From NCBI GenBank assembly GCA_963722455.1, contig CAVRMD010000015.1, forward strand, positions 24,745 through 88,744: 64,000 nucleotides of DNA, in the 5' to 3' direction. Shown piece by piece: positions 48,126 to 64,000 of the stretch; position 1 is the stretch's first letter; every line of letters starts with the position of its first letter. Both the position numbers and the translations under genes were made by a program. The notes beneath the pieces are model-generated. The model was not told where the DNA came from. It searched no databases and saw only the letters and a program-made list of their open reading frames with translations. This stretch comes from an uncultured Solirubrobacteraceae bacterium (lineage in GTDB: Bacteria; Actinomycetota; Thermoleophilia; Solirubrobacterales; Solirubrobacteraceae).

Positions 48126-48475
48126 CTACGCGTGCGACAAGGCCGAGATCGAGCGGCTGCTCGCCGATCGCGCCGCCGATCGCCCCGCGTTGGAGCTCTA
48201 CGTGCTGCTTCCCTCGATCGGGCTGGGGGCGCACAGCGTCGGCGCCAAGACGTCGCTCCCCGGGCCGCTCGAGCCGGCCGGCCGCATGCTCGCCGCGCTT
48301 GCGCTGCGCCTCCGCGCCCACCATGGCGAGCGCCAAGCACGTCGAGGAGATCCGGGTCGTCAACGGCCTGACGCGCGGCAACCTCACCGCGGCGCTGCGC
48401 GGCGAGCACGTCGGCACGATCATCCACGCCGACCGAGGTCCAGCGCGCAGCGCACGATCACGCGTGCGACCGTGA
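48120..48475 (+). pseudogene. Possible remnant of an amino-acid-kinase-family (PyrH/ArgB-like) gene
   Basis: [27 protein letters not shown] resembles an AAK C-terminus. Upstream protein-like sequence lies in a different frame, and there is no room for a full gene. Confidence 0.3.
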
Positions 48476-49655
48476 CGAGGTCGGCGACCGCGACGCGCTC
48501 GTCGACCGCGTGGGCGAGGCGGATGCCGCGCGGGCCGAACATGACGCAGGGGATGCCGCGCGCGCAGAACAGGCGCATGTCGGCGCCGTAGCCGACGCCG
48601 GCGAGCGCCGGGGCCGCGCCGAGCTCGGCGGCGCCGGCGCGCCGCACGGTCGCGACCCAGGGGTCGTCGAGCGCGGTCTCGCCGGACGCGAACTGACCGC
48701 CGCTCCAGGCGATCTCGACCGGCGGCCCGTGCTCGTCTGCGGCGGCGGCGACGGCGCGCTCGAGCCCCGCGCGCGCCGCGGCGAGCGACTCGCCGACCGG
48801 CACCCCGAGGCGGCCTTCGAAGACGAGCTCGTCGGGCACCTGGCTTGACCAGCCGCCGGCCCGCAGCCGCCCGACGAGCAGCGGGTAGGGCAGCGGATGG
48901 TCGGCCAGCAGCGGGTGGCGCGGCCGCGCGTTGACCGCCCGCTCGTGCGCGTGCAGCGCGGCGTGGATCGGCAGGTAGCGGTCGATCGCCGACACGCCCT
49001 CCAGGCGCAGCGCGGCGTGCGCGCAGCGGCCGCGGACGGTGCCGGTGAACGTCAGCGCGCCGCCGTGGGCGCAGACGACCTCAAGCTCGGTCGGCTCGGG
49101 GATGAGGCAGGCGGCAAAGGCGCTGTCGCGTCGCAGCGCGGCGAACGTGCCCAGCCCGCCGTCCTCCTCGGAGGGCACTGCCTGCAGGACGACGTCGCCC
49201 GGCAGCTGCCCCCCAGCCGCCCGCAGCGCCGCGAGCGCGTGCAGCGCGGCGACGACCGCGCCCTTCATGTCCGCGCTGCCGCGGCCGTGCACGACGCCGT
49301 CCCGGACCGCGCCCGACCACGGGTCGCGGCTCCAGGGCTCGCGCCCGGGGGCGACGACGTCGATGTGGCCGTTGACGCACAGGCGGGGCGCCGCGCGGTC
49401 GCTGCCGGGCAGCGTGACGATCGCGCCGACGAGCTCGCTGCGCGCCGCCTCCTCGCCGGGATAGCCGGGCGCGCCGCGCAGCTGCGCCAGGTCGAACGCG
49501 ACGAGCTCGGCGTCAAGCCCCAGCTCGCGGGCGATCGCGACGACCTCCTCGGCCGCCGCGCGCTCGTCGCCGGTCACGCTCGCGACGCGCACGAGGCGGC
49601 CGGCGTCGCGCGCGAGGGCGGCGCCGTCGACCCGGGCGAGCGCCGCCGCCGTCAC
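48420..49655 (-). CDS. M20 family metallopeptidase (ArgE/DapE-like)
   Basis: [16 protein letters not shown] and SEEDGG motifs. The GTG start overlaps the upstream stop (GTGA). Confidence 0.85.
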
Positions 49656-51253
49656 GAGGCGGGCGACCCGCCGGGCGCGCGACGCGGAGCGGCGCTCTCG
49701 CGTCGGCGCTCGAGCGCCGCCATCGCGGCGTTGCGGCCGGGGATCGCGCTGACCCCGCCGCCGCGGCGCGCGCCGGCCCCGCAGAGCAGGATCGCGGGGT
49801 CGTCGGTCTCCACGCCCCAGCGCCCGACGTCGGCCTCGTCCTCGGCGAACGGCCAGGCGAGGTCGCGATGGAAGATGTGCCCGCCCGGCATGCGCAGCTC
49901 GTCCTCGATGTCCGCGGGAGAGCGCGCCTCGACGCACGGCGCGCCGTGCGTCGTGCGCAGCAGGCAGTCGGTGATCGGCTCGCCGAGCACGCTGTCCAGC
50001 GACGCGAGCACGGCCTGCAGCGCGGCGTCGCGATCGCCGGCGCGCCTGAACAGCCGCGCCGGCATGTGCAGTCCGAAGAGCGTCAGCGCGTGGACGCCGG
50101 CGGCCGCCTCGCGGGGGCCGAGGATGCTGCGGTCGCAGAGCGTGTGGCAGTAGACCTCGCAGGGCGCCGGCGCCGGGATGCGCCCGGCGGCGGCTTCGGC
50201 GTAGGCGGCCGCGAGCTGCGACGCGCTCTCGTTGACGTGAACCGTGCCGGCGAAGGCGCGCTCGGGCGTGACGCCGCCGTCGCGCAGGCGCGGCAGCCGC
50301 GACAGCAGCATGTTGACCTTCAGCTGCGCGCCCTCGGGCGGCTCGGCGAGCGGCTCGCGGCCGCGCAGCCGTTCGAGCTCGGCCGGTGCGACGTTGGCCA
50401 GGATCATCCGCGCGCCGACCGAGCGGGCGCCGCCGCCGGCGGTCTGAAAGCGCACCTCGCCGTCGCCGGCCGCGGTCACCTCCGCACCGGTGCGAAGCTC
50501 GGCGCCGGCGTTGCGCGCGGCGCCTGCGAGCGCGGCGCTGACCGTGCCCATGCCGCCGATCGGGACCGCCCACTCGCCGGTGCCGCCGCCGATGACGTGG
50601 TACAGAAAGCAGCGGTTCTGGCGCAGGTCGCGGTCCGTCGCGGAGGCGAACGTGCCGATGAGCGCGTCGGTCAGCACGACGCCGCGCACGAGGTCGTCGG
50701 CGAGCAGCCGGGCGACGCCGGCAGCGAGCGGCTCGTCGACGAGCAGGCTCCAGAGCGCGTCGTCGGCCACGATCCGGCGCAGCTGCTCGCGCGAGCGCAG
50801 CGGCTCGGTGAGCGTCGGGAAGACGCGCCGCGCCAGCCCGGCGAGCCGGCGCTGCAGCGCGCGCCAGGCGTCGTGCTCGGCGCCGGATCCGGTCACCCGC
50901 GCGAACGAGGCGCGCGTGGCCTGCTCGTCGCGCTCGACGAGCAGCCCGCGCGCGCAGGCGGCGCGCGGGTCGGGGGTGTACGACGACGTCGTGCGGGGCG
51001 CGCAGCGCACGCGCAGGTCGAGCTCGTCGACGATCTGGCGCGGCAGCAGGCTGACGAGGTAGGCGTAGCGCGACAGGCGCGCGTCGATGCCGGGGAAGAC
51101 CTGCTCGGAGACCGCCGCGCCGCCGAGCTCGTCGCGGCGCTCGAGGACGAGGCACGACCAGCCCGCGCGCGCCAGGTACGCCGCGGCCGCAAGGCCGTTG
51201 TGGCCGCCGCCGACGACGACGGCGTCGTAGCGGTCGGCGCGCGGCGCGGTCAC
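49652..51253 (-). CDS. FAD-dependent oxidoreductase, phytoene desaturase (CrtI)-like family
   Basis: YDAVVVGGGHNGLAAAAYLARAG dinucleotide-binding motif; length about 530 aa. Confidence 0.85.
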   Translation of the reverse strand: MTAPRADRYDAVVVGGGHNGLAAAAYLARAGWSCLVLERRDELGGAAVSEQVFPGIDARLSRYAYLVSLLPRQIVDELDLRVRCAPRTTSSYTPDPRAACARGLLVERDEQATRASFARVTGSGAEHDAWRALQRRLAGLARRVFPTLTEPLRSREQLRRIVADDALWSLLVDEPLAAGVARLLADDLVRGVVLTDALIGTFASATDRDLRQNRCFLYHVIGGGTGEWAVPIGGMGTVSAALAGAARNAGAELRTGAEVTAAGDGEVRFQTAGGGARSVGARMILANVAPAELERLRGREPLAEPPEGAQLKVNMLLSRLPRLRDGGVTPERAFAGTVHVNESASQLAAAYAEAAAGRIPAPAPCEVYCHTLCDRSILGPREAAAGVHALTLFGLHMPARLFRRAGDRDAALQAVLASLDSVLGEPITDCLLRTTHGAPCVEARSPADIEDELRMPGGHIFHRDLAWPFAEDEADVGRWGVETDDPAILLCGAGARRGGGVSAIPGRNAAMAALERRRESAAPRRAPGGSPAS

Positions 51254-51268
51254 GCCGTCCAGTGTGGC

Positions 51269-52174
51269 TCAGCCGGCTTCGCCGGCGCGCGCGAGGACGC
51301 GCAGCGCGGCGACGCGGACCGCCTCGTCGAGCATCTGCCCGTCGAGCGCGACGGCGCCGGCGCCGCCCTCGCGCTCGGCCGCCGCGAGCGCGTCGATGAC
51401 CGCGCGGGCGTGCTCGACCTCCTCGCCGGACGGCGTGAAGAGCTCGTTGAGCGCCGCGACCTGGGCGGGGTGGATCGCCCACTTGCCGTCGAAGCCCATG
51501 TCGCGCGCCCGCTCGGCCGCCGCGCTGAAGCCCTCGTCGACCTTGATGCCGAGGTACGGCCCGTCGATCGCCGCGACGTCGTGCGTGCGCGCGGCGACGA
51601 GGATCGCGTCCTGGATCGCCCGCCAGGAGTCCAGCTCGGCGCGCGCGCCCGCCGCGCGTCCCAGCGAGGCCGAGAGGTCGGCGTAGCCGAGGATGAGCGA
51701 GTCCAGCCGCGGCGAGCAGCCGGCGATCTCGTCCAGCCGCGCGACGCCCGCGGCGGTCTCGATGAGCGCCTGCACGCGCAGCGGCGCGCGGCCGGTCTGG
51801 GCGGCGGCCTCGACGCCGTCGAGCAGCCTGTCGACGAACGCCAGGTCGCCGGCGCTCTCGACCTTCGGGACGATGATCGACGCCGGGCCCTGCGCCCCGC
51901 CGGCCATCGCGATGATGTCGGCGTGGCACCACGCGGTCCGCGCGGCGTTGACGCGGACGCTGCAGTTCACGCCGCGCCAGACGGGCTCCCGGAGCGCGGC
52001 GACGACGGTGTCGCGGGCCTCGTCCTTGGCCGACGTCGCGACGGCGTCCTCGAGGTCGACGATGACCTCGTCGGCGCCCCGTTGAGGCGCTTTGGCGAGC
52101 ATCGACGCCGACGAGCCCGGGACGGAGAGGCACGAGCGGCGCGCGGTGGGGGAGGGGGCGTGTGCGGTGGCCAT
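51269..52174 (-). CDS. HpcH/HpaI aldolase / citrate lyase beta (CitE)-like protein
   Basis: RSCLSVPG, VIVDLEDAV, LIETA and LILGYADL are CitE-type motifs. Confidence 0.85.
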   Translation of the reverse strand: MATAHAPSPTARRSCLSVPGSSASMLAKAPQRGADEVIVDLEDAVATSAKDEARDTVVAALREPVWRGVNCSVRVNAARTAWCHADIIAMAGGAQGPASIIVPKVESAGDLAFVDRLLDGVEAAAQTGRAPLRVQALIETAAGVARLDEIAGCSPRLDSLILGYADLSASLGRAAGARAELDSWRAIQDAILVAARTHDVAAIDGPYLGIKVDEGFSAAAERARDMGFDGKWAIHPAQVAALNELFTPSGEEVEHARAVIDALAAAEREGGAGAVALDGQMLDEAVRVAALRVLARAGEAG

Positions 52175-52217
52175 GTGGCCGCAGCGTAATGAGCGCGCGC
52201 GCGTCTTGCCGTGCGGG

Positions 52218-58246: not shown

Positions 58247-58969
58247 TCATGCGCGCAGCCGCGCGACGGGTCGCTGGGGCGCATAGCTGCGCCGGCGCAG
58301 GCTCGTCGCGGCGGCGGCGGTGAAGGCGACGGCGAGCAGGATCGCCGCGAGCGTCACGGCGCGGGGGATGGCCGGCGCTGCCTGCGCTTCGCCGGCAGCG
58401 GCGGGGGCGGCCGGCTCGGCGTGGTCGGCTGCGCCGGAGGCCACGGCCACGCCCGCGTGGGCGTGGGCGCGCTGCAGCCCGGGCATGCCCGCCGCGCTGA
58501 CGGCGAGCAGCAGCGCGACGCCGGCCGCGGTGCCGGCGAGCCTGGGCGCGCGACGGGTCGCGCGACCCGCGGCGCGCGATCCGCCGGCTGACCGCAGCGC
58601 GTGTGCGGCGAGCGCGAGGAGCGCGATCTCGGCCGAGACCGAGACGATCCCCGCGGTGCTCGTCCAGTCCCCGACGTGGTCGGCCATCCGCGGCAGGGCC
58701 ACGACGCGGCTCAGCGCGTAGCCGGCCAGCGTCGCCGCGCTGAGCGTGCCGATCGCGATCCAGGTGCCCCGCAGCGCGCGCGGGCGGCGGCGCACGAGCA
58801 CGAGCGCCAGGACGACGCAGGCGACGATCAGCAGCGAGAACAGCGTCGCCATGTAGGCGACGCCCTCCTCGAGCTTGTGCGACAGGTCGACGAGATGCGT
58901 GATCGCGACGACGTTCAGCAGCCCGACGGCGATCGTTCGCAGCAGCGCCTCGCGCGGGGTCATCGTCAT
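58247..58969 (-). CDS. Integral membrane hypothetical protein
   Basis: Four to five hydrophobic helices. AAGGAG lies 9 nt upstream of the ATG at 58969. Confidence 0.5.
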   Translation of the reverse strand: MTMTPREALLRTIAVGLLNVVAITHLVDLSHKLEEGVAYMATLFSLLIVACVVLALVLVRRRPRALRGTWIAIGTLSAATLAGYALSRVVALPRMADHVGDWTSTAGIVSVSAEIALLALAAHALRSAGGSRAAGRATRRAPRLAGTAAGVALLLAVSAAGMPGLQRAHAHAGVAVASGAADHAEPAAPAAAGEAQAAPAIPRAVTLAAILLAVAFTAAAATSLRRRSYAPQRPVARLRA

Positions 58970-59088
58970 GGTCGTTGGCTCCTTCGGCGCGTGGCGCGCA
59001 GGATCTGGGGAGGCGGGCTTGGTCGCCGGGTACTGCGTGCGCGCCACCCGCGCGGATCAGCCGCGGCCGAGCTCGGGGCCGGGCAGCG

Positions 59089-60888
59089 TCACGCCTCCAG
59101 CGTCTGCGCCGCCTCCAGCCACGATGCCTCGAGCAGCTCGCGCTCGGTCAGCAGCGCGGCGAGCTGCTCCTGCAGCGCCCGCAGGCGCGCGTGGTCGGTC
59201 GCCGCGACGGCCATCGCAGCATGCAGCTCGCGCTCGTCTTCGCCGAGGCGCTCGAGCGCGCGCTCGAGGCGCTGGACCTCCTTGCGCGCGGCGCGCAGCG
59301 ACCCGCCCGGGCTTCTCGCCGTGGCGCTCCCCGCGGCCGGTCCGCGCGGCCGATCGGCCCCGGACGCCGCCGCCCGCCGCCCCTCGACGTACTGCTCGAT
59401 CCCGCCGGGCAGGTGGCGCAGAGCGCCGGTGCCCGTGAGCGCGTGCACGTCGTCGCAGACGCGCTCGACGAAGTAGCGGTCGTGGCTGACGACGACCAGC
59501 GTGCCGGGCCAGCGATCCAGCAGGTCCTCCAGGGCGGTCAGCGTCTCGATGTCGAGGTCGTTCGTCGGCTCGTCGAGCAGCAGGACGTTGGGCTCGGCCA
59601 TGAGCAGGCGCATGAGCTGCAGGCGCCGGCGCTGGCCGCCCGACAGGTCGGCCACGAGCGTGCGCGCGAGGTCCCCGCGAAAGCCGAACCGGTCGCAGAG
59701 CATGCTGGCCGTGATCTCCTGGCCGTCGCTCAGCGTCGCGTGGCCGCGGACCTGCTCGAGCGCCTCGAGCACGCGCAGCTGCGGCGCGATCTCGGTCGTG
59801 TCCTGGGAGAGGCGGGCCAGGCGGACCGTCGCGCCGCGGTCGACCCGGCCGCCGTCGGGATCGAGCTCGCCCGCGAGCAGCGCCAGCAGCGTCGTCTTGC
59901 CCGAGCCGTTGACGCCGACGAGGGCGACGCGGTCGCCGGGGCCCAGCCGCCACGTCAGCCCGTCCAGCAGCGTCCGATCGCCGAAGCGCAGCGAGACGTC
60001 GACGGCCTCGAGCACCTTGTCGCCGAGCCGCGACGTCGCGAAGCGCAGCAGCTCGGCGCGGTCGCGCACCTCGGGCTCGTCGGCGATGAGCGCCTCGGCG
60101 GCGTCGATGCGGAACTTCGGCTTGCTCGTCCGCGCGGGCGGGCCGCGGCGCAGCCAGGCGAGCTCCTTGCGCAGCAGCTGCCGGCGGCGGTCCGAGCGCG
60201 CCGCCGCCTGGCGGTCGCGCTCGGCGCGCGCGAGGACGAACGCCGCGTAGCCGCCCTCGTAGCGGTGGACGGTCTGCTCGGCGACCTCCCACGTCGCCGT
60301 GCAGACGGCGTCGAGGAACCAGCGATCGTGGGTCACGACGAGCAGCGCGCCGCGCCGCGCGGCGAGGTGCCCGGCGAGCCAGTCGACCGCCTCGACGTCG
60401 AGGTGGTTCGTCGGCTCGTCGAGCAGCAGCAGCTCGGGGCCGTCGAGCAGCAGGCGCGCGATCGCGATGCGGCGCCGCTCGCCGCCCGACAGCGAGGCGA
60501 TCGGGGTGCGCATCCCGCCCGCGAAGCGCTCGAGCGCGACGCCGCCGAGCAGTCCGTCGAGCACGCCGCGAAACGCGCTGTCGGCCGCCCACTCGTGGTC
60601 GGCCCGGCTGCCGACGAGCGCGTCGCGGATCGTCGCGTGGACGTCGAGCTCGTCGCCCTGGCCGAGCAGCGCCAGCCCGACGTCGCGCGCCCGCGTCACC
60701 TGGCCGGCGTCGGGCGGCTCGGCACCGGCGATGAGGCGCAGCAGCGTGGACTTGCCGTCGCCGTTGCGCCCGACGACGCCGATCCGCTCGGCGGCCGCGA
60801 TCCCGAGCGTGACGTCGTGCAGGACGGTGCGGCTGCCGTAGCCCTTGCCGACGGCCTTGAGGTTGACGAGGTTGCGCGCGGCGGCCAT
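59089..60888 (-). CDS. ABC-F family ATPase (two NBDs, no TM domain)
   Basis: Two Walker A sites (GRNGDGKST, GVNGSGKTT), two signatures (LSGGERRR, LSGGQRRR) and a C-terminal coiled coil. Confidence 0.9.
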   Translation of the reverse strand: MAAARNLVNLKAVGKGYGSRTVLHDVTLGIAAAERIGVVGRNGDGKSTLLRLIAGAEPPDAGQVTRARDVGLALLGQGDELDVHATIRDALVGSRADHEWAADSAFRGVLDGLLGGVALERFAGGMRTPIASLSGGERRRIAIARLLLDGPELLLLDEPTNHLDVEAVDWLAGHLAARRGALLVVTHDRWFLDAVCTATWEVAEQTVHRYEGGYAAFVLARAERDRQAAARSDRRRQLLRKELAWLRRGPPARTSKPKFRIDAAEALIADEPEVRDRAELLRFATSRLGDKVLEAVDVSLRFGDRTLLDGLTWRLGPGDRVALVGVNGSGKTTLLALLAGELDPDGGRVDRGATVRLARLSQDTTEIAPQLRVLEALEQVRGHATLSDGQEITASMLCDRFGFRGDLARTLVADLSGGQRRRLQLMRLLMAEPNVLLLDEPTNDLDIETLTALEDLLDRWPGTLVVVSHDRYFVERVCDDVHALTGTGALRHLPGGIEQYVEGRRAAASGADRPRGPAAGSATARSPGGSLRAARKEVQRLERALERLGEDERELHAAMAVAATDHARLRALQEQLAALLTERELLEASWLEAAQTLEA

Positions 60889-60895
60889 CGCCGTC

Positions 60896-62182
60896 TCAGG
60901 CCGGCGGCGCGGTGATGAGCAACGGTGACGCGACGCGGCGGTCGCCGATCCGCAGGTAGAAGAGCGCGATCCCGGCGTGGCCGTCGAGCAGCCCGGGCGC
61001 GAAGCCGCCGGGCAGACCGCAGGGCCAGCCGTCGAGTCCGTTCTCGTAGCGGCTGATCCCGTGCTCGGCAAGGCGCCGGGCCAGCGCGACCCGGCCCGCC
61101 GGATCGTCGTCGAGCAGGTCGGCGCCGAGCAGCAGCGCGTCGGCGGCACCGGCGAGGCCGTCGGCGAGCGCGAAGCTCTCGCCGGCGGCCGCGAGGCCGC
61201 GCTCGACGCGCGCGGCCGTCGTCGTGAGGGCGGCGAGCGCCTCGGTGCGCAGGCGCTCGTCGCCGAGCAGCGACCAGGCGCGCAGCCGGGCGAGGGCGAT
61301 CCCCGGCGCGCCGTGCGCCCAGCTGTCCTCGCGCGGCGCGACGAAGCGACCGCGGCGCTCGCCGCGGTCGATGCCGCGCAGGTCCGGCCAGCCGCCCGCG
61401 TCCGGGTCGTGCCAGCGCCGCTCGTAGTCCAGCGCCCGCAGGGCGGCATCGCGGTGGCGCGCCTCGCCGGTGCGCGCGAACAGCTCGAGCAGGGCCCAGG
61501 CCGCGCCGGCCGCGCCGCGCGAGAAGCCGCAGAGCGGATGCTCGGCGGGTGACGAGGGCGACCGCCAGGCGCCGCCGGCCGGCCCGCGCGTCGCCGTGCC
61601 GGCGAGCTCGTCGCCGAGCTGCGCCGCGCGGCTCACCAGACGATCGTCGCCGAGCAGCCCGGCGAGCGCGAGCAGCCCCGCGACCGCCCCCGCGGTCCCC
61701 TGCACGAGATCGGCGGCCGCGGTCGGCGGCGGCGCTGCGCGGGCGACCCGCGCCGCCCGCGCCAGCAGGCGCTCGTCGGCGAGCAACACGCCGCAGCGCG
61801 CTGCCGCGTAGGCGACGCCGAGCCGTCCGGCGTAGAGCCCGCGTGCCGCGTGGCGCGGGATCTCGTCGACGTGCGCGAGCGCCTGCTCGATCGCGCCGCG
61901 GGCGGTCCGCGCGAGCGCGTCGTCGGCGCCGGCCGCGTGCAGCTGCGCGAGCGCGAGCGCGACGCCGGCCGTCCCGCCCCCGAGGTCGGGGCCGAGGGCG
62001 CGATGCACGACGCGCGCCTGCGATCGACCGCGCGCGGCCTCGACGGCGGGGGCGACCCAGTTGCAGCGCGCGCGGTACCAGACCGCCGCGCGCACGATCC
62101 GCCCGCCGATGCCGGCCGCGGTCGCGAGGGCGTCGGGCCGGGCGGCCGCGGGCGGCGCGATGCTACGAAAGCTCGTAGGCAT
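60896..62182 (-). CDS. LanC-like protein lacking the canonical zinc/catalytic ligands
   Basis: Repeated GxAG helix-hairpin motifs (GGTAGVALALAQL, GRLGVAYAA, QGTAGAVAGLLAL). The His/Cys motifs read GFSRGAAG, SWAHGAPG and LADGLAG instead of GxAHG, SWCxG and LCHG. Confidence 0.8.
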   Translation of the reverse strand: MPTSFRSIAPPAAARPDALATAAGIGGRIVRAAVWYRARCNWVAPAVEAARGRSQARVVHRALGPDLGGGTAGVALALAQLHAAGADDALARTARGAIEQALAHVDEIPRHAARGLYAGRLGVAYAAARCGVLLADERLLARAARVARAAPPPTAAADLVQGTAGAVAGLLALAGLLGDDRLVSRAAQLGDELAGTATRGPAGGAWRSPSSPAEHPLCGFSRGAAGAAWALLELFARTGEARHRDAALRALDYERRWHDPDAGGWPDLRGIDRGERRGRFVAPREDSWAHGAPGIALARLRAWSLLGDERLRTEALAALTTTAARVERGLAAAGESFALADGLAGAADALLLGADLLDDDPAGRVALARRLAEHGISRYENGLDGWPCGLPGGFAPGLLDGHAGIALFYLRIGDRRVASPLLITAPPA

Positions 62183-63176
62183 CCCGCGACCCCGGTCGGA
62201 GGTACGGCGCGTCGAGCGTCAGCCCCGCGTCGGCGAAGCGGCGCTCGACGAGGGCGAGGCGCCGCGCCGGCTCGTCCAGGCGCCGCTCGCGCGCCGCGAG
62301 CACCGCCTCGGCGAGCAGCCGGCAGCGCTGCTCGCCGAAGCGCCGCCCGCCGGCGGGCTCCTCGGCGACGGCGATCCCGCGCGAGAGCGGCTTGGCGAAG
62401 GCCGGCGCGGGGTCGGCGAGCTGGGCGCGCAGCGCGCGCAGCAGCGGGCGCAGCAGCGACGCGACCGCGGCGAAGTCCTCCGTCCGGACGAGCAGGTCGG
62501 CGGCGCTGGCGTCCCGGTAGCGGGCCGGATCGGTCGCGAGCTCGAGGCCAAACGGCAGCTCCGCGCGGTTGAGGACGTACGTCGCCCGCGCGACGAGCGT
62601 CACGGCCCCGGCCGCGGCGACGTTCCAGCTCAGCCGGGTGAGCGCCGCGTCGCCGTCTGCGCGCAGCGGCGCGTCGCCGAGCGCGACGTACAGGCCCGGG
62701 GTGAGTCCCGCGGCCTCCTTCGGCACGCGGACCGCCGGCGGCGCGCCGGCGTCGGTCTCCGCGACGAGCCGGGCGTCGTCGGCGGCCACGCGCAGACGCA
62801 GGCCGTCGGGGCGCTGCACCGTCGTCTCGTCGGGGCCGTGTCCGACGACCCGCCAGCCGGCCTGCCACTGACCGCGACCGCAGTTGGCCTGCGACAGCGC
62901 ACGCACGAAGCCATCGCCGTCGCCCGCCGGCGCCGGCCCGAGCGGCGGGGGAAGCGGCACGCCGGCGCCGTGGAAGTCGCGCTCCAGGCGCCGCGCGATC
63001 GCATCGACGAGCAGCTCGCGCCGGCGCGCCTCGCCGACGCGTGCGCGCTCACGGGGGGTCAGGACCTCGGTGCGCCGGCCGAACCAGACGTAGGCGCACG
63101 GCGGCCGCGCGTCGACCGCGCGCAGCGCCGCCGCGACCTGGCGGCGGTAGCGATCGGTGATCGCGGCGGCGAGCAT
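62163..63176 (-). CDS. Hypothetical protein, HopA1-like lyase candidate (assigned by context)
   Basis: About 337 aa. The ATG overlaps the kinase stop (ATGA) and the 3' end overlaps the LanC-like start by 20 nt. The family assignment is not verified by motif. Confidence 0.4.
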   Translation of the reverse strand: MLAAAITDRYRRQVAAALRAVDARPPCAYVWFGRRTEVLTPRERARVGEARRRELLVDAIARRLERDFHGAGVPLPPPLGPAPAGDGDGFVRALSQANCGRGQWQAGWRVVGHGPDETTVQRPDGLRLRVAADDARLVAETDAGAPPAVRVPKEAAGLTPGLYVALGDAPLRADGDAALTRLSWNVAAAGAVTLVARATYVLNRAELPFGLELATDPARYRDASAADLLVRTEDFAAVASLLRPLLRALRAQLADPAPAFAKPLSRGIAVAEEPAGGRRFGEQRCRLLAEAVLAARERRLDEPARRLALVERRFADAGLTLDAPYLRPGSRDAYELS

Positions 63177-64000
63177 CACGCGTGCGCCAGCTCGCCGCGC
63201 AGCGCGTCGGGCTCGAGCAGCAGCCCGCGCGCGAGGCGCAGCGCGCTCCCGATGCGCGCGGTCAGGCAGCCGGCCTCCTGGGTGTCCTCGTAGCCGCTCT
63301 GGACGAGGCGTGCCGCGGCGTAGCGGACCGAGCGCGCCAGGAGCTGCTCGGCGGGCCGTCCGCTCAGCCCGCGGGCCCGCGCGTAGGCGCGCCACAGCGA
63401 CGCCAGCGCCGGCCGGACCGCCGGCCAGGGGCGCTGCGCCTGCTCGGCGCCCCGCCTGTCGCGGGGATCGAGCCCGTCCGGGATCGTCGCGAGCCCGAAG
63501 CCGAGCAGCTCGCCGATCGCCGATCCGACGTCGAGTGCCGGATCGCCCCAACCGGCCATCTCCCAGTCGACGAGCGCCACGCGCGTCAGGCGCGCCTGCT
63601 GCGGTGCCGGCACGGCGATGCAGTTGGCCAGCTTGACGTCGCGGTGCACGAGCGCCTCGACGCGCCAGCCCGCGCGCAGGTCGTCGAGGGCCGCGGCGAA
63701 CGGCTCGTCGCGCTGGATCGAGGCGATGAGCTCGATGCTCGCCGCGCTGAGATAGCGCAGCGCGTCCAGCGGCGGACGGTGCAGCGACAGCACCCAGGGC
63801 GGATCGCAGCGCAGCTGCTCCTCGTCGGGGGCCACGGCGTGCAGCGCGGCGAGCGCGCGGCCGAGCGCCGCGGCGAGGACCGTCGAGGCTCGCGTGCGCG
63901 CGGCGTGCACGCGGTAGAGGTCCAGGCCGCCGGCGATCCACTCGATCGTGAGCACGCCGGCCGCGCGGTGAAAGCCGTAGACCCGCGGGACATGGCGCGC
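63176..64000 (-). CDS. APH/protein-kinase-like phosphotransferase, 5' end outside the window
   Basis: Catalytic loop HRDVKLANCI and the metal-binding region LVDWEMAGWGDPALD. The frame stays open to the window edge. Confidence 0.75.
   Translation of the reverse strand, partial: ARHVPRVYGFHRAAGVLTIEWIAGGLDLYRVHAARTRASTVLAAALGRALAALHAVAPDEEQLRCDPPWVLSLHRPPLDALRYLSAASIELIASIQRDEPFAAALDDLRAGWRVEALVHRDVKLANCIAVPAPQQARLTRVALVDWEMAGWGDPALDVGSAIGELLGFGLATIPDGLDPRDRRGAEQAQRPWPAVRPALASLWRAYARARGLSGRPAEQLLARSVRYAAARLVQSGYEDTQEAGCLTARIGSALRLARGLLLEPDALRGELAHA

Follow-up and report, generated by a model that had tools for sequence, protein, structure and literature searches.

The question raised by the locus described here is whether three genes that resemble a lanthipeptide synthetase still encode one. 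The locus lies at the end of a 64,000-nucleotide stretch of contig CAVRMD010000015.1 (positions 24,745 to 88,744) from an uncultured Solirubrobacteraceae bacterium, hereafter referred to as the window. Three adjacent genes on the minus strand encode an APH-family, LanK-like kinase (63176..64000), a HopA1/LanY-like protein of 337 residues (62163..63176) and a LanC-like protein of 428 residues (60896..62182). An initial annotation had described this trio at the same coordinates and compared it to a class V-type lanthionine synthetase. As judged from their sequences, the three proteins descend from a class Vb-type three-protein synthetase, but the trio in this soil Solirubrobacteraceae subclade probably no longer makes a lanthipeptide.

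In class V systems, two proteins perform the dehydration, a separate APH-like kinase (LanK) and a phospho-Ser/Thr lyase resembling HopA1 (LanY) (PMC9486802). Class Va systems lack a LanC, while class Vb adds a dedicated LanC, with SmoA as the sole characterized member named in the accounts cited (PMC11186320, PMC12291118, PMC12328550). According to papers citing Pei et al. (2022), the class Vb enzymes SmoK, SmoY and SmoC are likewise separate PF01636, PF17914 and PF05147 proteins, encoded in the same gene order and in overlapping reading frames, and SmoA is their precursor. In the window, the HopA1-like and LanC-like genes overlap by exactly the 20 nt previously reported, and the kinase and HopA1-like genes share 1 nt, in a TGATG at 63176 rather than in the ATGA originally described. 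The proposed class V-type architecture thus stands and can be narrowed to class Vb, whereas this copy is probably not a working synthetase. Unlike class Vb, the window LanY lacks the catalytic Lys and Tyr, the LanC lacks zinc ligands, the orthologous loci contain no precursor, and an ABC-F gene is attached.

A set of 48 related loci was collected by a pattern scan of species-representative genomes, which do not include the genome of the window itself, using an alignment of HopA1-like homologues. In most of these loci, the kinase, LanY and LanC genes are adjacent and in the same order. Loci of this kind were found in several phyla, namely in Solirubrobacterales, Micromonospora, Rhizocola, Alpha- and Betaproteobacteria, Acidobacteriota and Verrucomicrobiota. 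At 49-61% identity, the closest relatives all belong to Solirubrobacteraceae or to unclassified actinomycete metagenome-assembled genomes (MAGs). The window trio falls in a monophyletic Solirubrobacteraceae subclade comprised of 14 loci and about 100 protein clusters, which a neighbor-joining tree of the concatenated proteins places among canonical Solirubrobacterales lineages, with the window as its earliest branch. Sites that are at least 90% conserved in the canonical proteins were then checked systematically for loss in the subclade. No such site was lost from the kinase. The LanC had lost two Cys and a neighboring Ser, and the LanY had lost the Lys, the Tyr and four further sites, of which two lie close to the Tyr.

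Both motifs noted earlier in the kinase, HRDVKLANC and DWEMAGWGDP, were found, and the protein matched Pfam APH with E=4.8e-13. The gene is indeed cut by the end of the window, since its frame is open to base 64000 and its relatives are about 62 residues longer at the N-terminus; the visible part comprises 274 of approximately 336 residues. Counted from the first visible residue, the catalytic residues are D121 (HRD), N126 and D145 (DWE). Subclade and canonical kinases alike conserve the Lys of the N-lobe, the Glu of helix C, the Asp of H-x-D, the Asn and the Asp of DWE, the N-lobe being visible in the relatives only, since the window ends inside the gene. The protein is thus an APH-family kinase (PF01636) that stands alone and has its catalytic residues intact. 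It matched the NCBIfam LxmK model with 94 bits (E=7e-27), below the model cut-off of 315 bits, and a single-sequence search of the fragment against the PDB gave no match. A difference between the groups was seen at H119-R120-D121 (window 63638-63643), which is HRD in the subclade and HGD in canonical relatives. At least 90% of subclade kinases have the Arg, while Gly is the commonest canonical residue at this position (80%).

The proposed HopA1 identity of the second protein was borne out by a search with the Pfam HopA1 model PF17914 (E=2.1e-26), with which the predicted fold agrees. An AlphaFold model with a pLDDT (predicted local distance difference test) of 92.3 was compared to the PDB with Foldseek. 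The best match was the LxmY lyase 9DK3_B, the lyase chain of the LxmKY dehydratase (E=1.5e-17, template modeling score 0.69-0.73), followed by P. syringae HopA1. Profile and fold searches were needed, since a single-sequence search of the PDB gave no match. The protein therefore has the fold of a stand-alone HopA1-like LanY (PF17914). The class Va systems LxmK/LxmY and CaoK/CaoY (PDB 9DK1-3; PMC9486802; PMC12141560) share this LanY fold, and the window kinase is similar to LxmK, but class Va includes LanD and LanX and lacks a LanC. Massatide, which had been considered as a class Vb prototype, was set aside because it is a class Va peptide.

In CaoY, neither R187 nor K219 is dispensable, R229 makes a contribution, and the catalytic Lys has Y236 as its conserved partner; lyase activity was abolished in K219A (PMC9486802). 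The window protein retains R181, corresponding to CaoY R187, but has E212 (codon at 62541..62543, minus strand) at the position of K219, D222 at R229 and L229 at Y236. All canonical LanY proteins with an intact frame, a count that leaves out the garbled L047, follow the pattern R-x(31)-K-x(9)-R-x-D-x(4)-Y, and the spacing in CaoY agrees to within one residue. In the subclade, the Lys position is occupied by Glu, or by Gln in L004, the Tyr position by Leu, Val, Ser or Ile, and the RxD is variable. A profile alignment to the solved LxmY placed its "AKVL...RRDAVVLYL" opposite "lELl...rrdaAvLll" in the subclade. Among 120 database homologues of LanY, the Lys and Tyr are replaced in about 110, and R-K-R-D-Y is kept in just 8, which are the most distant ones. 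Thus, the Lys and Tyr that serve phosphate elimination, and that LxmY and CaoY both keep, are absent not only from the window protein but throughout the subclade.

The LanC-like protein was also identified correctly in the initial annotation. It matched Pfam LANC_like with E=2.4e-41 as well as the LanM, LanL and LanKC models in their cyclase parts, and has the LanC cyclase (PF05147) fold. However, it has no zinc site. A289 and A340 are found at the positions of NisC C284 and C330, D341 at H331, and R222 at the acid/base residue H212, so that neither the Cys-Cys-His ligands nor the acid/base His are present. Alignment to the cyclase domain of LicM2 (6ST5) showed WAHG versus WCHG, LADG versus LCHG and SRG versus SHG. 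When the motif columns were compared across 34 loci, WCHG and LCHG were found in 21 of the 22 aligned canonical copies (the exception being L032), whereas both Cys were gone in all 11 distinct subclade copies. A comparison of 120 homologues showed that Cys-Cys-His was kept in only 2 of the approximately 100 that belong to the subclade, and that the four active-site positions are highly variable among these 100. The exceptional canonical copy, L032 10738-11958 from a Pseudomonadota MAG, has lost its zinc ligands independently (WEHG, AAGG), and the LanY of this locus keeps its Lys and Tyr. A natural LanY-LanC fusion was also seen, in P0262 (692 residues, from a JGI metagenome), which combines HopA1 (PF17914) and LANC_like (PF05147) in one protein.

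The earlier observation that no short precursor open reading frame (ORF) lies downstream of the trio also held. The next gene, which starts 7 nt past the LanC stop, encodes an ABC-F ATPase. A precursor-like family did emerge when 2,189 small ORFs from the surroundings of the trios were clustered with BLAST. Its members are approximately 140-156 residues long and consist of a conserved N-terminal domain of about 110 residues, closed by an (A/K)EFLxGxI-like motif, and a variable tail containing Cys, Ser and Thr. They include L016 8384-8854, L024 4116-4574, L036 3193-3606, L038 4465-4914, L011 4859-5302 and L018 12282-12725. The family adjoins most of the canonical kinase/LanY/LanC trios, in several phyla, and resembles a precursor whose leader domain is very long. 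It has no match in Pfam or NCBIfam, and its database homologues are all listed as "hypothetical".

Two variants of this family were found. In the first, which is split, a copy of the leader-like domain without any Cys has immediately after it a separate peptide of 68-74 residues with a LExxEAEFL motif, ending in YCCR, GCCK or GGCCG (L013 3988-4610, L018 12282-12946, L027 12227-12902 and L014 3822-4791). In giant members, a stretch rich in Cys, Thr and Pro and several hundred residues long comes after the leader-like domain (L030 4589-6436 and 6258-8645; L022 7663-8775; L015 7381-8727; L017 7889-8812; L044 6147-7247 and 7405-8538; L035 7028-8548). In L030, there are more than 10 tandem repeats of about 45 residues (GPTGVQHCTAAPQYCGNTAWQGC...), with periods of 135-138 in the DNA. 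Such giant proteins may be multi-core precursors.

The profile of the precursor-like family matched approximately 28 loci outside the subclade, but gave no match in the subclade loci or in the 64-kb window. (The L032 locus, described above, did not match it either.) Clustering of small ORFs near the subclade trios yielded antisense artefacts only, and when the sequence upstream of the kinases was scanned by composition for small ORFs rich in Cys, Ser and Thr, only unconserved, Arg-rich ORFs in random frames were returned. Gene calls in three further relatives showed no small gene beside the trio. The genes called upstream of the subclade kinases differ between genomes, and include PhoD, an amino-acid permease fragment and a pyridoxamine-oxidase-like gene. 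A precursor gene was thus found neither downstream of the trio in the window nor within ≤10 kb on either side in the 14 orthologous loci.

The subclade trios do have a constant neighbor. The ABC-F ATPase (59089..60888, minus strand, 599 residues) has two ABC domains and a linker, no membrane domain, and a C-terminal domain (Pfam ABC_tran twice, ABC_tran_Xtn and ABC_tran_CTD). It scored below the cut-offs of the NCBIfam EttA, Uup and resistance subfamily models, and reached 372.9 bits against the ribosomal-protection-like ABC-F model, for which the cut-off is 380. The kinase, LanY-like, LanC-like and ABC-F genes form a translationally coupled block. The trio is followed by the ABC-F gene in all 14 subclade loci, and the same APH, HopA1, LanC, ABC-F block was found in the three further relatives, whose genes were called independently. 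The ABC-F proteins of the closest relatives are 77-84% identical to the window copy. These four genes are the sole unit common to all subclade members sampled, while both flanks differ between members. A promoter and terminator scan of 58900-64000 found nothing, and the 7-nt gap, the lack of a terminator-like site and the conservation of the block between varying flanks suggest that the trio and the ABC-F gene are co-transcribed. The arrangement also suggests a functional link between them, either in translation control or in ribosome protection, but this is the weakest step of the argument.

Because the LanY residues, the LanC zinc ligands and an adjacent precursor are all missing, we did not file the trio as a lanthipeptide synthetase, and by the known mechanism it is probably not a lanthionine synthetase. 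The losses are specific and monophyletic, and they coincide with the loss of the precursor and the gain of the ABC-F neighbor; the simplest reading is therefore a single ancestral change of function. We lean, if only by a little, towards a repurposed module, in which an active kinase and two pseudoenzyme partners act on a non-adjacent substrate that is probably a protein. The initial annotation had offered action on a protein as the alternative to a precursor beyond base 64000, and this alternative fits the sequence data better than lanthipeptide synthesis does.

The remodeling would have occurred once, in the ancestor of the Solirubrobacteraceae subclade, when the module would have ceased to dehydrate and cyclize a peptide while retaining its predicted-active kinase. 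The kinase would phosphorylate Ser or Thr residues of a substrate encoded elsewhere, which is likelier to be a protein than a dedicated precursor of a peptide that is made on the ribosome and modified post-translationally (RiPP). The LanY would persist as the obligate structural partner of the kinase, and possibly as a binder of the phosphorylated segment, as the remodeled pocket might hold a phospho-residue without eliminating the phosphate. One possible reason for keeping an inactive LanY is that LxmK and LxmY need to form a heterodimer in order to be soluble and stable (PMC12141560). The LanC would be a non-catalytic scaffold or a substrate-binding subunit; we favor such a role over new catalysis because the former active-site positions vary freely. 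The outcome would be a stable phosphorylation and no thioether ring. The stand-alone eukaryotic proteins LanCL1/2 likewise have the LanC fold and no RiPP precursor, and are proposed to act on proteins carrying phosphorylation-derived modifications, but they keep the zinc site, add glutathione to dehydroamino acids and are not known to be encoded alongside a kinase-LanY pair. If the two partners are indeed pseudoenzymes, the products should carry +80 Da instead of −18 Da, the LanC should be free of zinc, and the substitutions E212K/L229Y might restore lyase activity. The subclade would then provide a clean natural case of a RiPP machine that was dismantled and reused, with the catalytic sites alone erased.

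In a more far-reaching form of this reading, which we consider doubtful, a family-level lineage of soil Actinomycetota turned a RiPP synthetase into a signaling complex consisting of an active Ser/Thr kinase and two pseudoenzymes, directed at a protein target, with the ABC-F protein co-expressed and possibly regulated. The dead phospho-lyase would be the phospho-site binder of this complex and the zinc-less LanC its scaffold. This would be a case of bacterial natural-product enzymes repurposed for protein regulation.

Several points weigh against the repurposed module. The search for a precursor in this genome spans the window only, and the sequence upstream of the kinase lies beyond base 64000. 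The adjacency to the ABC-F gene could reflect inherited gene order only, as the downstream regional synteny is partly conserved. Pairwise Nei-Gojobori ratios of nonsynonymous to synonymous substitution rates (dN/dS) within the subclade, 0.32-0.54 for the three trio genes and 0.19-0.35 for the ABC-F gene, are only indicative, since dS is probably underestimated at ≈78% G+C. The cyclase domains of class III LanKC proteins lack zinc ligands and are nevertheless active (PMC9486802; PMC10604976), so that the loss of the ligands alone is no proof of inactivity. Finally, several charged residues are newly conserved in the subclade LanY. The position of the catalytic Lys is Glu in ≈85% of the proteins, and the new conserved residues include Arg, Tyr and Asp, which could mean a new chemistry rather than none.

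These last two points are also the case for an altered chemistry that still acts on a peptide, with a metal-independent, class III-like cyclase, and with elimination performed by other LanY residues or, as in LanM, in the active site of the kinase. The purifying selection on all three genes is in keeping with such an activity. We nevertheless think it unlikely, because the trio has no accompanying precursor and the four LanC active-site positions are variable instead of being fixed again to other residues, and a LanY lacking its catalytic Lys is, to our knowledge, without precedent. Apart from the missing zinc ligands, the likeness to class III is limited. LanKC is one three-domain polypeptide with an OspF-type lyase that has its catalytic residues and a Ser/Thr protein-kinase-type domain, and it has adjacent precursors, which yield labionin or lanthionine products, whereas there is no adjacent precursor for the subclade trios. 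Assignment of the trio to class III or IV (LanKC or LanL) was considered separately and rejected, because the proteins are encoded by three separate ORFs and the lyase belongs to the HopA1/LanY type; of the LanKC and LanL models, just the cyclase parts matched, far under the cut-offs.

A working class Vb synthetase, with its precursor beyond base 64000 or elsewhere in the genome, would agree with the architecture and gene order (PMC11186320). The genes of RiPP precursors are sometimes remote from those of the enzymes, and the upstream flank in this genome is outside the window. We consider this very unlikely, however, since such a synthetase would have to work without the LanY Lys, whose replacement kills CaoY, without the Tyr, and with a LanC that has lost its zinc ligands at positions that now vary freely, and the 14 orthologous loci are all without a nearby precursor. 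Furthermore, the MAG that contains the subclade locus L002 (L002/L049) has a second, canonical kinase and LanY pair (L050 8890-11621) in which R-K-R-D-Y is intact. This pair adjoins a precursor-like gene and has no adjacent LanC. Since L002 and L050 are found in one MAG, the degenerate trio coexists with a canonical paralogue, and has not replaced it.

Equally little is to be said for a decaying, functionless remnant that happens to lie upstream of an essential ABC-F gene. The dN/dS of the trio is about twice that of the ABC-F gene, the LanC active site has drifted, and a few relatives (L003, L007, L023 and L052) have frameshifts or insertions. However, the frameshifted trios sit in MAGs in which the ABC-F gene is broken as well, and these MAGs appear, from their names, to be nanopore-derived. 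The ORFs are intact in the window and full-length in most of the 14 genomes, despite divergence to about 50-60% identity, and only catalytic sites have been lost, while the kinase keeps all of its catalytic residues and dozens of further conserved sites remain. The intact genes and the dN/dS values, which are well under 1, argue against simple decay, to the extent that the latter are indicative.

In operons that pair a macrolide phosphotransferase with an Msr-type ABC-F protein, the two genes act in antibiotic resistance. By analogy, a predicted-active APH-family kinase that inactivates an incoming ribosome-targeting (peptide) antibiotic and an ABC-F protein that protects the ribosome could form a resistance or immunity pair, as the conserved block and the score just under the ribosomal-protection cut-off might suggest, but this is highly improbable, because the ABC-F protein is strongly conserved with a low dN/dS, resembles a housekeeping protein and reaches no specific resistance-family cut-off, and because the LanY and LanC would be left without a role.

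The distinction between a working synthetase and a repurposed module matters for annotation. Annotators and genome-mining tools name such genes "lantibiotic modifying enzyme" or "lanthionine synthetase", and would count a lanthipeptide cluster here, whereas the residue-level evidence indicates that this abundant Solirubrobacteraceae clade does not represent one. The unannotated precursor-like family associated with the canonical trios, with its leader domain of about 110 residues and sometimes many repeated Cys-rich cores, may on the other hand be of interest to the RiPP field.

The surroundings of the trio in the window are ordinary. Gene annotation of the window showed no RiPP tailoring, export or dedicated leader-protease gene near the trio. 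Further downstream are an unannotated ORF of 266 residues and genes for a trypsin-like peptidase, an SGNH and a CAP-domain protein, a glutaredoxin, a truncated globin, a protein with BNR repeats and an aldolase of the HpcH family. An Rfam scan of the window found zero RNA families, and the only hits of a repeat scan were chance matches in G+C-rich sequence and the duplication within the ABC-F gene. A role in anti-phage defense was considered and rejected, as PADLOC gave no match for the kinase, the LanY-like or the LanC-like protein; for the ABC-F protein it gave generic ATPase matches only. At 48420-52189 of the window, two long ORFs of 1237 and 773 residues on opposite strands are artefacts of the ≈77% G+C content and not genes. 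They overlap real genes: the HpcH-family aldolase is encoded at 51269-52174, and the 1237-residue ORF resembles, by eye, an M20-type peptidase in its C-terminal part.

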